Origin: Promethearchaeota archaeon
GTDB lineage: Archaea; Asgardarchaeota; Heimdallarchaeia; Hodarchaeales; Hodarchaeaceae
Length of the DNA: 64,000 nucleotides
Direction of reading: 5' to 3'
Assembly: GCA_048938105.1 (NCBI GenBank)
Contig: JBHLMN010000023.1
Span: 1 to 64,000 of the forward strand
Numbering within the stretch: the stretch's first letter is position 1; each line of letters starts with the position of its first letter. Positions 241-62,646 of this stretch are shown here, piece by piece. The notes under the pieces are model-generated. The model had not been told where the DNA came from and ran no database searches. It was given only the letters and a program-made list of their open reading frames with translations. The position numbers and the translations under genes were made by a program.

Positions 241-3200
241 TCATCCTCTAAATGACCAGGTCATTTCCTCTTCAACAATATAGATCCAATAAACGAACCA
301 TCCAGATTCTTTATAAAGGGAATGCCTTTCAGCATAATTCATAACACACCATATTGGAGCATCATCGTGGTCGTCAGCTCCAAAGTTGTGTGTAAGCTCA
401 TGTACTAAAGTTAGTTCCGCATACAATTGATCCCAGGATGCTTTGGCATTTACTTGTACTTGAGTGCCACTGATTATACCTAGTCCGCTGATATTAGCAA
501 TTCCTGTCCCTGATAAACCAACAAGAAGATCAAAACCATGATTGTTAACTGATGTGATATACCCTCCTGTTCCAGCTTGACTCCAGCTTCCAGAAAGTCC
601 AAGGTCGTCCTTTGCATGAAAATCTCTTAGATGATCCATCATCTGATGTATAGTATAATTTTCTGATGGATTCCAACCAGATCTGAATAAACAAACATAG
701 TCCACTTCCATCAATTCTTCGAGGCCATCATCACGTGTGTAAACAGTATAATTATTATCATTATTGACTTTTATTTTATGCGAAACAGCACTATAGAAAA
801 AATCACTGACTGAACTAATATAGGAAAGATCCGTAAATTCCGTGTCATAATAAACTACAGTAAAAACAAGACAACTATCAGGGTAGGTTGCACTATCTAC
901 ATCAAAAGTTTCATCATCCACATATGAATCAGTTGAGCCTTCAGCACACTTGGCATCTACCTGATCTATGATGTAATCACCTTCATTCCAAGCAAAATAC
1001 TTTCCACTATAATTGAAAAATTTGTTAAATGTCAGATAATGCCATTCTGTCTCTCCTGCGGGGAGTTCTCCATTCCAATCAAGATAATCACAGATATATT
1101 CAGCCCATGAATACGTACCGCCTTTTATCCTAATTCGCGTTTCAACATCGGTCGCAGTGGATGTTCCAATGTTCTCTATCGTAATTTTGAATTCTACAGG
1201 ATCCCCTTTTTTAGGATAATTTGTCACCGAAGTTGATTTAATGTTAAGCTCAGGATATTTCACTAACACCCCTACCCAGTCTATCAGGACTTTGTCAGCA
1301 CTACCTTGTGTATTCTTCCGGATGACCACTCGAAAATTGTTACTGTTAACTATAGTCGAATTCCATTCTGTTGCGTCTGAGAAATCAATCCAGTCTTCAT
1401 CCCAATTTTCCTGGAAAGCAGTTATGCTATTCGTCCAAGCAGAAGACCCACCAACCCAAGCTAATTTCATTCGAATTGTGTCGTCATCGACTGGTTTCCA
1501 ATGAATATAGACCCAAACTCCTTGAATCGTAACATCACTTGGCACATTCCAACCGAAATTCTTGTAACGCACATTATATCCGCTCACATGTCCCACGGCA
1601 TAATCCCCCCCTTTCGTATATGCCTCTGTTTCGGAAGACCAGGCTGAATTTGGATCTGAAAAGGAGGTGGGATCCTTGTAACCATAAGGTGGATTAGGCA
1701 TTGGGGGAATTTCTGGATTCAAGAAGAAATTGACCTCTTGATCTTCATTTGGAGTTATAACTTCACTTTGTTTCACATAATCCTGATGCCATACCCATAA
1801 ATCACAAAAATTATCTGATTTATCTACTGAAAAGGAGTAATAGCCTTGACTGTTAGTATTTGTACTAATGAGTAATGAACCATCATAATAAAGTTCAATA
1901 GTCGCTCCTTGGATCGGATCATTCTCTTGCCCACTTTCCTTGACATTCCCAGAAATTTCGACAATTTCTATTTTAGGTTCATAACTGAATGATAGCTTAG
2001 GATCATATGTTGTCCCTGACCCTGAATAAGAACTTTCACGAAAAGTGTAATAGTCACCATTCTCCGCACCATCATGATCTAAAACAAAACTGATGTATCC
2101 CTCATTATCTCCTCGATTGGCAGCCCAATAATCAGTTAAGGATTCCATTTTACTCGCAGACGCAGTTCTATACGCCCCTGACCCAATATTTCCAGAATAA
2201 ACTTTATCCGCTTCGGAATATGTGCCTAAACTATAACTAGTAGAATTCTCACGAGCAGTATTTGTATCACCGTTTCCTCCAATGTTATAGACCTTACAAT
2301 CCGCTCCTTCTGTTGAACTATCGAAACTTGAACTTGTACAATACATTTGGAATGAGACTGCAGATGTATCTGTAATAGATCCATTATCTAAGCCTGTATC
2401 AAATGCTATGAAGAGCGTTTGAATGTTCCCTGATTTGATCCCTACTTTAAAGGTTGTACTTGAAGTCACTGGCAGAAAGCTATCACGATATAAATCGTAA
2501 TTATCAATTGTATATATTGTACCAGTTGGAGGATCGATTTCTATCCTTGTTCCTGCAGAATAGTACCCAAGACCATACATTCCAGTACATAAAACTTTTT
2601 TAATAGTGTTATCAGGCATCCGTTGCTCATGAAACTTTAGATATTTTTTTGTAAATCCTGCTAATTCCATGTCGTCAAAGGCAAAACAAAATTGGACATC
2701 GTTTTCTGAGATGATGTCTACCTGTGAATGGAAATTAGCTAAATATTGTCCTGCTTGCCAAACTTCTTGAGCAGAGAGAACAATAGACTCAGTCTCATTT
2801 CTTATAACAAATTTCATAGGTTGAAAAGGAGTATTATCACTTTGAGGAGAACTAGTAATCTCATAGGCCAAACCAATATCCTCAAAATCCTGATCTAAAC
2901 ATTCGAATTCAGTGATCATATGAAATAACTGGTCTTCCATGCGATACTTAAAACCATGTTTAAAATTCCACGTTGTACCCTGAATAACTACGTCTGAAAG
3001 GGTAAAGAAAACCCCAAATTCGCTTTCCGAATTATAAAATTCCAGAGTATTGCGTGGATTTTGAGCTGTTCCTGAATACAGAGATCTATCATTGAGGATT
3101 TGGTCATACCAAATATCATTGGATTTCGCATACAAGTGAGGATAGATAGCATACAATGGTTGGTTATAGGCACTGATTTGGCTGTTTTGGAGGCGTGGCC

Positions 3201-3861
3201 AGTAGAGATATTGGGCATGGCCATTCACTAAATCTTGAAAGTTCAAATAGAATCCCATAACTCCACTAAAACTCTCGAAGCCAACGGCCCAGATTTTTGT
3301 TTTATTAATTTGGTGCAGACAAGTAGTAATTTCTGACGCTGTTTCAAAGAAGTATATCTCACCATTTCGTAAGCGGAGAAGAAATCTATGGGGATATTCC
3401 TCCGCAGTCACCCAATCTGTTTCCTCAAATACCCCTTCTTTCTGGACTAAATTATCTGATTGATAAGTATAGTTCCCAGTCGCTTTATTATAGAAGTGAC
3501 GATAAGTCCGCCCCCGAGAAGCCATTAATTCAAAGAAATCCTCAGAAAAATCCTCAAGAAAATAGCCCTCTGTTTTCCCTGTAGGATCACGAATATATGT
3601 CCTATTCACCTCTTCCAAAATTTTGGCCTTCTGGAAGGAGATTTTCTCTGAACTTACATTATTTGAGGCAAAAGAAGAAGATTCTGATGTGTTCTCGACA
3701 TCTAAGTTTTCCATATCATCAGTTATCCTATTTGAACCAAGAATGTCTACAAAAACTGGTTGAAAATCACTAATAGTCCTTATCATACCCATAGATGATG
3801 GAACTAAAGCTAAACAAAGCACAAAAACAAGAGATACAACAACTATTTGTTTCTTACTCAT
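241..3861 (-). CDS. Large secreted multidomain zinc metalloprotease (metzincin-like C-terminal domain; DNRLRE-like, carboxypeptidase-regulatory-like and CARDB/Ig-like modules)
   Basis: Signal peptide MSKKQIVVVSLVFVLCLAL (ATG 3861 after GGAG). HELTHNFGADDH zinc motif plus CVMNY Met-turn. ISGNVKES...PIQGATIELY...TNSQGYYSF and VEFKITIENIG are beta-sandwich signatures. Confidence 0.7.
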   Translation of the reverse strand: MSKKQIVVVSLVFVLCLALVPSSMGMIRTISDFQPVFVDILGSNRITDDMENLDVENTSESSSFASNNVSSEKISFQKAKILEEVNRTYIRDPTGKTEGYFLEDFSEDFFELMASRGRTYRHFYNKATGNYTYQSDNLVQKEGVFEETDWVTAEEYPHRFLLRLRNGEIYFFETASEITTCLHQINKTKIWAVGFESFSGVMGFYLNFQDLVNGHAQYLYWPRLQNSQISAYNQPLYAIYPHLYAKSNDIWYDQILNDRSLYSGTAQNPRNTLEFYNSESEFGVFFTLSDVVIQGTTWNFKHGFKYRMEDQLFHMITEFECLDQDFEDIGLAYEITSSPQSDNTPFQPMKFVIRNETESIVLSAQEVWQAGQYLANFHSQVDIISENDVQFCFAFDDMELAGFTKKYLKFHEQRMPDNTIKKVLCTGMYGLGYYSAGTRIEIDPPTGTIYTIDNYDLYRDSFLPVTSSTTFKVGIKSGNIQTLFIAFDTGLDNGSITDTSAVSFQMYCTSSSFDSSTEGADCKVYNIGGNGDTNTARENSTSYSLGTYSEADKVYSGNIGSGAYRTASASKMESLTDYWAANRGDNEGYISFVLDHDGAENGDYYTFRESSYSGSGTTYDPKLSFSYEPKIEIVEISGNVKESGQENDPIQGATIELYYDGSLLISTNTNSQGYYSFSVDKSDNFCDLWVWHQDYVKQSEVITPNEDQEVNFFLNPEIPPMPNPPYGYKDPTSFSDPNSAWSSETEAYTKGGDYAVGHVSGYNVRYKNFGWNVPSDVTIQGVWVYIHWKPVDDDTIRMKLAWVGGSSAWTNSITAFQENWDEDWIDFSDATEWNSTIVNSNNFRVVIRKNTQGSADKVLIDWVGVLVKYPELNIKSTSVTNYPKKGDPVEFKITIENIGTSTATDVETRIRIKGGTYSWAEYICDYLDWNGELPAGETEWHYLTFNKFFNYSGKYFAWNEGDYIIDQVDAKCAEGSTDSYVDDETFDVDSATYPDSCLVFTVVYYDTEFTDLSYISSVSDFFYSAVSHKIKVNNDNNYTVYTRDDGLEELMEVDYVCLFRSGWNPSENYTIHQMMDHLRDFHAKDDLGLSGSWSQAGTGGYITSVNNHGFDLLVGLSGTGIANISGLGIISGTQVQVNAKASWDQLYAELTLVHELTHNFGADDHDDAPIWCVMNYAERHSLYKESGWFVYWIYIVEEEMTWSFRG

Positions 3862-60333: not shown

Positions 60334-60960
60334 TTATCTCTCGTTGCCCCTTCGATTTAACATTGGGGCAATCAATCTAATAACTAAGAGTATGTCAAGA
60401 ATTACAAGGGTAATAAGTAGAGTAATAGCAGCATAAAAATTAGCCAAAGAAAAATCTTCTGGAGTTTCAATGACTGTAATCTCAACATTATTGCTGATTG
60501 TCTTAAATTTCGTAGGATTGAGTTCTGAGTCATAATACTCAACGAGTGCCGAGAATAAGTAATATGTACCTAGCGATTTTGCTGTAACTAAATAACTAAA
60601 TTTACGAGTTTCATTAACATCAATTTGACCATAAGAGAGTTGTGTTAAACCTGATACCTCAAAAACCCACGGTTGATTTAATTGATCAATAAAAGTAACA
60701 TTGTAAGCTGTTTTGTTACCAAAGTTATTAATGATCACATTGACTACAAAACTCTCCCCTCTAACTACCTCAGTTTTATCAACGTTTTTTACAACAAATA
60801 ATTTCGGGTAAATAAAATTTGTTTTCTCCACTTCTGCTGTTGAAGCCCTGACATGTGTTGTTGTTTGATTTAGGGCAATACCAACAATATTCAGACTTAC
60901 TACTGTTAAGAAAACAAAGCAAATCCGTTTTGTCTTACTATTCAATAATAAAAACCCCAT
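60334..60960 (-). CDS. TRAP-beta (SSR2)-like type I membrane protein (BatD/DUF11-like Ig fold)
   Basis: Signal segment; L.V.K...V.G...I.N.G...A.NV...D...F.VSG...G.Y...A.V.Y; C-terminal TM. Confidence 0.6.
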   Translation of the reverse strand: MGFLLLNSKTKRICFVFLTVVSLNIVGIALNQTTTHVRASTAEVEKTNFIYPKLFVVKNVDKTEVVRGESFVVNVIINNFGNKTAYNVTFIDQLNQPWVFEVSGLTQLSYGQIDVNETRKFSYLVTAKSLGTYYLFSALVEYYDSELNPTKFKTISNNVEITVIETPEDFSLANFYAAITLLITLVILDILLVIRLIAPMLNRRGNER

Positions 60961-61076
60961 TAAGGCGCAGTTACACTCCTGTAGATTATCTTGTTAAAGA
61001 TTCTTGTTTCTATTCTTTTTATCTTCAAATTTTCTTAACAAAACATTCTTGTTTTACTTTTTTCCTTTAACTTAAC

Positions 61077-62030
61077 ATGGCACATTCTTTATTTGAAAAG
61101 AGATTTCTGTTCTTTGGAGGAAAAGGAGGAGTTGGTAAGACCACCATGGCAGCTGCTACAGCTATAAGAGCGGCTGACCGTGAATATCGTACTTTATTAG
61201 TTTCAACAGATCCAGCTCATTCTGTCTCAGATAGTCTAGACCAACGAATTGGAGGGGAGACTTACACAAAAGTGAATAATGTCTCAAATTTATGGGCTAT
61301 CGAGCTGAATACAGAAGAGGCTATGCGGAATTACAGTCAAATTGTAAGTCAACAGGATCCTTCAGGAACTGTTTCAGAATTTCTTGGTGGGGATGATCCT
61401 GCTTCTTTATCCCCACCAGGAGCGGATGAAACAGTAGCATTTATACAGCTGTTAGAATATATTCAAAATCCTGAATATGATATAGTTGTATTTGATACAG
61501 CTCCAACTGGGCATACACTTAAACTGCTTCAACTACCAGAGATGACCCAAAGTTGGTTATATCGACTCATTAAAATGAGACGACGGCTAGGAGGGATGAT
61601 GGCTGGTTTTAAAGCCATTTTTGGGGGAAATTCTGGTACAAGCGAACAAGAAGCCTTTGATAAGCTAGAGGAATTAAGAGACCAAGTAGAAATTGCACGA
61701 GTTCATTTAGCCAATGCAAAAGAAACAGAATTTGTTGCTGTTATGATTCCTACTATAATGGCGATTTGGGAAACAGAACGTCTGATTCGAGCATTGTTTG
61801 AAGTGGCTTTTCCAATATCACAAATCTTTATCAATCAAATCCAGCCTAAAAATCTAGAATGTGCCTATTGTAGAGCAAGATATGGGAGTCAACAGGAGAA
61901 TTTACAAAAAATTCAGGAATTATACTCTGAATTTGACCTAATTGAAATTCCAATGTTTGAATATGAAATTAGAGGTATTGAGCGCCTTCGAGAATTAGGT
62001 CTCTTATTGTACCAAGAAGATTCTAATTGA
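61077..62030 (+). CDS. ArsA/Get3 (TRC40)-family ATPase
   Basis: GKGGVGKTT, STDPAH, DTAPTGHTL, C-terminal CAYC. Confidence 0.92.
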   Translation: MAHSLFEKRFLFFGGKGGVGKTTMAAATAIRAADREYRTLLVSTDPAHSVSDSLDQRIGGETYTKVNNVSNLWAIELNTEEAMRNYSQIVSQQDPSGTVSEFLGGDDPASLSPPGADETVAFIQLLEYIQNPEYDIVVFDTAPTGHTLKLLQLPEMTQSWLYRLIKMRRRLGGMMAGFKAIFGGNSGTSEQEAFDKLEELRDQVEIARVHLANAKETEFVAVMIPTIMAIWETERLIRALFEVAFPISQIFINQIQPKNLECAYCRARYGSQQENLQKIQELYSEFDLIEIPMFEYEIRGIERLRELGLLLYQEDSN

Positions 62031-62046
62031 AGAGAGATATTAGATA

Positions 62047-62646
62047 TTATCCGTCTTCGTCCCAACCTTTCTTAATTCTAGCAAAAGCCTCTTTAAGTTC
62101 CATGTTCATTTGAGCTTTTAAACTCATTGGAGAAGCTCTTGCTGGGGGAGCAGCTGGTTGTGGTGCCGGTGGTTGTCCGAAACTTGGTTGTGGAGCTGGA
62201 GATAAACCAGGTAGAGGGGGAAGACCTGGTGGTGCCGATGGAGAAGAGGGAGGAGAAGTCGGACTTGAGGGGGGAGCCGAAGCCGTTGCTGGAGTTGGGG
62301 GTGTTGGAAGTCCTGGTGGTACACTTGTTGTTGCTGGTGCTGGAGGTGGTACACTTGTTGTTGCTGGTGTTGGAGGTGGTACACTTGTTGTTGCTGGTGT
62401 TGGAGGTGGTACACTTGCTACTGGTGTTGAAAGTGGTCTAGAAGCAGCTGTTACACCTGGGTTTGTTGAAAGTTGATCTACTTTGATAGTTAATTCATCT
62501 AAGCTATTTGCTAAGCTATCTACAATCTCTGCGAGCTGAGACACAAAACCAAAGAACTTTTTTGTCACTTCAATTAATGTTTTTACATTCTGGGACTCAT
62601 CATCACCAAAGAAATCATCTATGTTTTTCATAGACACCAAGAACAC
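62047..62646 (-). CDS. Small coiled-coil/polyproline protein with a C-terminal helix and acidic Trp tail
   Basis: Heptad N-terminus, ~100-aa Pro-rich tract, tail SLKAQMNMELKEAFARIKKGWDEDG. Confidence 0.8.
   Translation of the reverse strand: MFLVSMKNIDDFFGDDESQNVKTLIEVTKKFFGFVSQLAEIVDSLANSLDELTIKVDQLSTNPGVTAASRPLSTPVASVPPPTPATTSVPPPTPATTSVPPPAPATTSVPPGLPTPPTPATASAPPSSPTSPPSSPSAPPGLPPLPGLSPAPQPSFGQPPAPQPAAPPARASPMSLKAQMNMELKEAFARIKKGWDEDG
62311..62417. repeat. 30-bp coding tandem repeat, about 3.5 copies (TSVPPPTPAT)
   Basis: TGGAGGTGGTACACTTGTTGTTGCTGGTGT units at 62311, 62341, 62371 and 62401 (partial). Confidence 0.9.

Follow-up and report, generated by a model that had tools for sequence, protein, structure and literature searches.

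Asgard archaea possess eukaryote-like actin, profilins and gelsolins, and no factor that starts or elongates their filaments has been found (PMC9433394, PMC12050087); their nucleation machineries are still unknown (PMC9433394). A short gene in the window, the whole 64,000-nucleotide stretch of DNA analysed here, raises the question of whether such a factor is encoded there and, if so, of what kind. The original prediction described its product (below, the window protein) as a miniature WAVE/SCAR-type nucleation-promoting factor with a WAVE- or BRK1-like coiled coil at its start, and with a helix and acidic tryptophan motif at its end that would engage Arp2/3. The three-part layout stood, and a broad link to actin remains the best single guess because the layout is shared with eukaryotic actin-assembly factors. 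The WAVE/SCAR and Arp2/3 specifics did not stand. The best reading, which we put forward tentatively, is that of an oligomeric, Ena/VASP-like tether with a candidate actin-docking helix and profilin-type proline motifs.

Gene, conserved parts and family

The window DNA is low-GC and archaeal, and the genome to which it belongs is 5.85 Mb in size and 99% complete. The ORF at 62047-62646 on the minus strand is present, and its named homologues lie in Hodarchaeales and Heimdallarchaeota assemblies. The alignment shows that the orthologues share a start at the ATG at 62631; an upstream GTG would add five residues, which are not conserved. The alignment analysed runs from this ATG and contains 35 full-length orthologues and the window protein, that is, 36 members. 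The following features were recognised.

62047..62631, minus strand: coding sequence, 194 aa and a stop codon, the start being taken as the ATG at 62631 (MKNIDD...)
62599..62625, minus strand: N-terminal acidic/aromatic motif, residues 3-11, with the pattern hydrophobic-x-x-hydrophobic-hydrophobic among acidic residues; assigned by conservation
62464..62598, minus strand: long heptad helix (N-helix), residues 12-56; assigned by AlphaFold2 (pLDDT about 90), a/d pattern and hhalign
62134..62463, minus strand: disordered Pro/Ala/Ser/Thr-rich linker, residues 57-166, pLDDT about 50-60, without secondary structure
62315..62417, no strand: 30-bp tandem repeat in the linker, 3.4 copies, 98% matches
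62206..62226, minus strand: GLPPLPG, residues 136-142, a proline motif of the FH1/VASP type; L137, P138, L140 and P141 are invariant, P139 and G142 at least 90% conserved
62050..62133, minus strand: C-terminal block, residues 167-194, with a Pro-Met-Ser cap, an amphipathic basic helix (171-191), KKGW and an acidic end
62062..62064, minus strand: codon of W190, invariant in the 36 family members

All three structural parts named in the original prediction, namely an N-terminal heptad helix, a proline-rich middle of about 100 residues and an amphipathic C-terminal helix followed by a Trp-acidic end, were borne out. The AlphaFold2 model, based on 36 orthologues, contains helices at residues 12-56 (pLDDT about 90) and 171-191 (pLDDT about 80), with residues 57-170 unstructured. 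In the best heptad register of the N-helix, which follows a 3-4 pattern, 11 of the 13 a/d positions are hydrophobic. Residues 15-40 of this helix are conserved; residues 41-56 are variable and form a canonical coiled coil. N3, D5, F7 and F8 of the preceding acidic/aromatic motif are each conserved in at least 90% of the 36 members. The motif has a counterpart in the sister family, in Thor members and in other lineages, and is a short separate helix in the model of a Thor member. FFAT-like and LIR-like readings of it were considered and rejected, as the key positions fail when the alignments are inspected by eye.

The linker of the window protein contains 40 prolines in 108 residues (37%). In the 36 orthologues it is 100-132 residues long with 28-40% proline, and LPPLP[GN] occurs in every one of them (36/36); the sister-family orthologue has two copies of GLPPPPG. 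The 30-bp tandem repeat encodes three 10-residue linker units, which suggests that the length of the arm changes by slippage, and this fits the range of 100-132 residues. The C-terminal block S167-W190 is nearly invariant within the family: 18 of 32 columns, that of W190 included, are invariant. The polar helix residues Q174, N176 and E178 are among the invariant ones, and K180 is conserved in at least 90% of members. Conservation of the heptad helix, the proline-rich linker and the C-terminal block is far above chance.

The gene represents, in Hodarchaeaceae, an undescribed protein family that is single-copy and nearly pan-Asgard. The common layout comprises a homologous N-helix, a low-complexity linker, and an end helix with a Glu-Leu-Lys core and then a basic run, in an ORF of about 135-240 aa. 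Over the N-helix, comparison by hhalign of the Hodarchaeaceae alignment with that of members from Thor and lineage f21 gave 96% probability and E 3.6e-9. End helices from 11 Asgard families (that of the window and ten others) can be aligned, with a Pro-x-Ser cap, Glu-Leu-Lys, a hydrophobic pair and the basic run. The profile of these helices matches 78 of the 100 sampled Asgard genomes, nearly always once and in ORFs of 135-240 aa. Every sampled genome was positive in Thor (20/20), Loki-type f14 (19/19), f17, f8, f12, f18, f15 and f25. The N-helix profile matches 84 of 150 genomes; Thorarchaeota loci number 69.

A narrow profile made without the sister-family orthologue found the gene in 20/20 Hodarchaeaceae genomes and in 0/61 genomes from the rest of the class. 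When this orthologue was added, ORFs of 135-160 aa with a like layout were found in other lineages. The orthologue itself (P0053, 150 aa), from the same order, has all three parts. Within the window's class most families besides Hodarchaeaceae are negative with these profiles. A diverged member of 280 aa (L191:556-1395, plus strand), which belongs to another family of the Heimdall class, matches the profile weakly; its N-helix and linker are of the usual kind. This protein carries two copies of the end helix in tandem. Two traits are peculiar to Hodarchaeaceae, the ending in KKGW and acidic residues and the very high content of proline: proline makes up 5-10% of Thor and f21 members, and Loki-type members have repeated Gly-Pro5 tracts. 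An aminotransferase, a prefoldin-like ORF and generic coiled coils among the profile matches proved on inspection to be false positives.

No Pfam family scores above threshold on the window protein (E up to 1), on the 36 members (E up to 10) or on nine Thor/f21 members; the matches below the cut-off are to generic coiled-coil families only. Among PDB chain sequences the N-helix profile has no match better than E 0.007, and those obtained are confined to designed helices, GCN4 and L7/L12 fragments; the end-helix profile has no meaningful match. An L7/L12 N-terminal match at E 0.5 was discarded as coiled-coil noise. In a set of 1.84 billion representative proteins the matches of the N-helix profile are confined to its own family and to repetitive coiled coils, and the ESM Atlas yields only unnamed Asgard clusters under a useful score and single-helix structural matches. 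A literature search found neither the end-helix sequences of the family nor a paper describing an Asgard factor of such a kind.

In the Hodarchaeaceae family folP and a convergent gene of a Get3-type ATPase invariably flank the gene. The sister-family orthologue is situated between the genes of a MoxR-type ATPase and of ribosomal protein S8e, and the Thor members are beside sugar-metabolism genes. No actin, profilin or gelsolin gene adjoins the gene here or at the loci examined. A functional link to the Get3-type ATPase (conserved tail-to-tail position; weak Get5 C-domain match at E 0.16 in 2 of the 36 members) was rejected, since synteny within the family extends over the entire region and the neighbours are others in the sister family and in Thor. 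In the window region 60334-62030 the genes of a TRAP-beta-like membrane protein (PF05753, E 2e-13) and of a single-domain ArsA/Get3-type ATPase (286 bits) are divergently oriented. The gene order cofE-folP-[window gene]-Get3-TRAPbeta-endA-NDK-H+-PPase, and with it the pair of Get3 and TRAP-beta genes, is kept in two other Hodarchaeales assemblies.

The WAVE/SCAR reading

Three observations speak for a WAVE-type factor. The order of coiled coil, proline-rich region, helix and Trp-acidic end mimics that of WAVE; W190 and the acidic end do not vary within Hodarchaeaceae; and the genome contains an ARPC4-like ORF (PF05856, 32.8 bits, above the cut-off; G000:C9:118593-119063, L003:1333-1803). However, the similarity does not extend to the sequence of the N-helix. 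A helix of the WAVE homology domain had been reported to match it at 8 of 18 positions. The count is right, but the match is not specific: at least 8/18 is reached in 13 windows of the genome's own ORFs, two of which lie in the window protein in different registers, and the match is at chance level. The matched stretch is the variable half of the N-helix. The resemblance to WAVE or BRK1 likewise found no support, as no WAVE, BRK1/HSPC300 or Abi chain was listed among the PDB chain sequences matched by the N-helix profile at E up to 10; the profile finds its own family and generic coiled-coil repeats.

The expected actin-related partners are missing as well. The genome contains one actin gene (442 bits to PF00022). 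A tblastn search with this actin at E up to 10 found no second actin-family gene in the 99%-complete genome, and hence no Arp2 or Arp3. Neither the genome scan nor hmmscan of the 36 members gave a WH2 (PF02205) match on the window protein at E up to 10, and no similarity to WH1 was found. The sister-family orthologue does have an LKKV tetrad, which aligns with F183-I186. However, it lies in a predicted continuous helix and its hydrophobic residues are spaced i, i+4, which is not the WH2 spacing. With no Arp2/Arp3 paralogue, no WH2 match and no similarity to WAVE, BRK1 or Abi, the claim of an Arp2/3-engaging nucleation-promoting factor fails.

The terminal tryptophan and acidic residues are kept within one family (36 members) but are absent from the sister family and from most other Asgard lineages. 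The position of W190 is occupied by Ile in the sister-family orthologue and by Leu in f17, and is absent or polar elsewhere. In members from Thor, Loki-type lineages, f21, f12, f8 and f22 a basic, Trp-free end replaces the acidic one. The Trp-acidic end is an innovation of that one family and not a general feature of the pan-Asgard one. The protein is not a WAVE/WASP-type activator of Arp2/3, a reading refuted on conservation, and it is very improbable that its end helix and acidic tryptophan activate an Arp2/3-like complex. This corrects an attractive but wrong reading: the tail that resembles the A part of Arp2/3 activators arose recently within a single family, and the organism has no Arp2/3. 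New here are the finding that the Trp-acidic end is confined to a single family and the absence of an Arp paralogue from the window genome, together with two results described below, the shuffle test of each lineage's helix against the VASP site and the copies of the modules linked to PAC2, zinc-ribbon and GTPase proteins.

The end helix and its candidate partners

In the reading preferred here, the N-helix would oligomerise the protein or anchor it in a helical bundle, and the proline-rich arm of 100-130 residues would act as a flexible spacer. The invariant GLPPLPG is a putative ligand of the profilin-like protein of the genome. The end helix would be a docking peptide, most likely for actin, either in the manner of the F-actin site of Ena/VASP or in the hydrophobic groove, as WH2-type helices or the C-terminal helix of arcadin-2. 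An oligomer would gather several actin-binding helices and landing sites for profilin-actin, and filament assembly would be promoted, or filaments tethered, without Arp2/3.

Several components of such a system are present. The genome contains a profilin-like gene (23.3 bits), and five of its loci have gelsolin domains; a search of it for WW and SH3_1 domains, which could also read a proline motif, found none. A Heimdall profilin binds the VASP polyproline weakly (PMC8410842), and the last 17 residues of arcadin-2, a Trp-bearing helix, bind the groove of crenactin (PMC5173319). Profilin recruitment is not a universal function of the family, given the low proline content (5-10%) of Thor and f21 members. 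A gelsolin-domain protein of the same genome (G000:C52:422366-423289) has, besides a C-terminal domain, a linker of about 65 residues rich in Pro, Ala and Thr, and is a second proline-arm protein of its actin system.

The end helices of individual lineages were compared with the F-actin-binding site of human VASP, residues 259-278 (PMC10340426), with 3000 composition-preserving shuffles as controls. Thor end helices match it with 14/19 identity at E 7.7e-6 (database of 1.7 Mresidues), the best unrelated ORF being at 0.043, and no shuffle out of 3000 reached the Thor score. The score was reached by 7-18 of 3000 shuffles for the Loki-type and f17 helices and by 89-220 for the window's family; the sister family is at chance. 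The likeness of the window helix to the VASP site is therefore little better than chance and, with the sister family at chance, the link to VASP rests for the window gene on transitive homology to the Thor members. The likeness could also be a convergence of basic amphipathic helices.

Other observations count against actin as the partner. The end helix is predicted as one continuous helix, as opposed to the helix-plus-extended-LKKV shape of WH2, and there is no WH2 match in Pfam; the gene is unlinked to actin, profilin and gelsolin genes at the loci examined. The helix also occurs on proteins of other kinds, and any hub partner would account for this equally well. The invariant polar residues of the end helix favour a specific, highly conserved protein over lipid as its partner. 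Actin, whose identity is 97-100% within the family and, over most of the phylum, 72-85%, fits such a partner, but other machines would too.

The main rival to an actin adaptor is a general adaptor, whose end helix docks on a hub other than actin and whose proline arm is only a spacer. Possible hubs are a small-GTPase or roadblock/longin module, an ESCRT MIT-domain protein, or the proteasome. We regard this as possible, if rather doubtful. It is favoured by the lack of linkage to actin genes and of a WH2 match, and by the occurrence of the helix on unrelated proteins. On a 5-kb contig of genome G054 (L018, G054:C162) a PAC2-family protein, homologous to proteasome chaperones (752-1447, plus strand; PAC2 E 1.4e-21), has its tail replaced by a diverged end helix; the PAC2 orthologue of the window genome (G000:C65:5436-6236) has a Tyr-Ile tail of the HbYX type instead. 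Beside the PAC2 protein gene is that of a 385-aa RagA/Gtr1-like GTPase (1485-2642, plus strand), and a 48-aa ORF consisting of the N-helix only (2763-2909, minus strand) overlaps the end of a Ras-like GTPase gene (2903-3439, minus strand). The locus resembles a duplicate of a family gene whose two end modules have been separated.

Further copies were found elsewhere. A 196-aa zinc-ribbon protein from another Hodarchaeota assembly (P0037, L040:125-715) contains a 19-residue stretch identical to the window end helix; a mobile or defence element could have captured the motif. In a Loki-type genome, a Ras-family GTPase (L189:1154-2299, plus strand; E 4e-37) has the end helix inside its C-terminal tail, and a phage-integrase-family protein of a Heimdall-class genome (L190:505-2196, plus strand; E 8e-18) has a proline-rich stretch and then a weak copy of the helix. 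A dedicated search found no longer proteins bearing the end helix of the Hodarchaeaceae family. As far as sequences can tell, reuse on unrelated proteins is the behaviour of a short docking motif for a common partner. On the other hand, the tests point to no candidate hub, eukaryotic WH2-type actin motifs are equally portable, and a hub other than actin leaves the likeness between Thor helices and VASP unexplained. For an MIT-domain partner, the alignment shows the MIM1 pattern only half present, the third Leu being missing; MIM1 and UIM readings of the end helix were both rejected, as key positions fail in the alignments by eye. Two features of the surroundings may be recorded: the PAC2 homologue gene of the window genome directly follows a Cdc48-like AAA ATPase gene, and the contig of P0037 also carries a weak JetD_C-like gene.

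The partner of the end helix may also lie within the protein itself. Docking on the conserved half of the N-helix, in the same or another copy, would lead to autoinhibition, to head-to-tail chains, or to a condensate scaffold recruiting other helix-bearing proteins. Both ends are conserved together across the phylum, and the conserved half of the N-helix has further hydrophobic residues outside the a/d positions (I20, F27, F29, I36). The split duplicate of G054, in which one contig carries the N-helix as an ORF of its own and the end helix on a PAC2 protein, is consistent with such pairing too. However, AlphaFold2 does not pack the two helices confidently: the model of the window protein has pTM 0.23, and that of a Thor member with a short linker, consisting of a short N-terminal helix, a long helix, disorder and the end helix, has pTM 0.39 with the helices unpacked. 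Covariation between the ends is not measurable, as both are nearly invariant. Self-association seems unlikely to us. There is a slimmer chance still that the end helix binds membranes and that the protein is a peripheral membrane tether. MinD and FtsA are targeted to membranes by C-terminal amphipathic helices, and the end helix is basic and amphipathic, with a net charge of +3 over residues 171-190 and Phe, Ile and Trp on one face. Yet its hydrophobic moment is modest (0.31) and its mean hydrophobicity negative, its invariant polar residues are not needed for lipid binding, an acidic tail follows it in the Hodarchaeaceae family, and the helix is also present on soluble proteins.

We therefore return to the oligomeric, Ena/VASP-like tether as the preferred reading. 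A small, single-copy and almost universal Asgard protein with modules of the Ena/VASP kind is the most concrete candidate for an assembly factor. If the helix binds another partner, the family still defines a portable docking motif, and this would lead to an unknown hub of Asgard cell biology. A bolder proposal, which we consider a long shot, identifies the family with the missing factor of Asgard actin assembly: it would act as an oligomeric polymerase or tether independent of Arp2/3, its proline motifs delivering profilin-actin and its end helix binding actin. Eukaryotic actin-binding helices (the F-actin site of VASP, perhaps WH2/C-type ones) would then descend from an archaeal docking helix, to which Hodarchaeaceae added a Trp-acidic extension.

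Comparison with known systems

With WAVE/SCAR and WASP the protein shares an N-terminal helix, a proline-rich middle and a C-terminal helix, followed in Hodarchaeaceae by Trp and acidic residues. Those proteins consist of a WHD or WH1, a proline-rich region and V-C-A; the window protein differs in having no WH2 match and no similarity to WHD, BRK1 or Abi, and its genome has no Arp2/3. A likeness in working principle exists to the ribosomal stalk proteins P1/P2 (aL12-type) and to the C-terminal peptide of FtsZ, without homology. In such tethered-peptide systems an oligomerising head carries a long flexible linker with a conserved terminal peptide that captures a partner.

Arcadin-2 of Pyrobaculum is, by description, similar in being a small archaeal protein with a conserved, Trp-bearing C-terminal helix (PMC5173319). 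This helix is its sole contact with its actin, in the hydrophobic groove (PMC5173319). However, the gene of arcadin-2 lies next to that of crenactin, in the arcade cluster, and the protein has no proline arm; the window gene is unlinked to actin.

The closest parallels are with Ena/VASP, namely an oligomerising coiled coil (predicted here), profilin-type proline motifs and a short basic amphipathic helix. Ena/VASP proteins have a proline-rich region and EVH2, which comprises a G-actin site, an F-actin site and a tetramerising coiled coil. The human F-actin site is matched at 14/19 positions by Thor members, and the window helix resembles it little more than chance would give. The window protein lacks EVH1 and a separate WH2-like G-actin site, and it matches no Pfam family, the EVH1 and EVH2 tetramerisation families included (window protein, E up to 1; 36 members, E up to 10). 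Finally, the order of the modules is reversed: in the Asgard family the coil comes first and the helix last.
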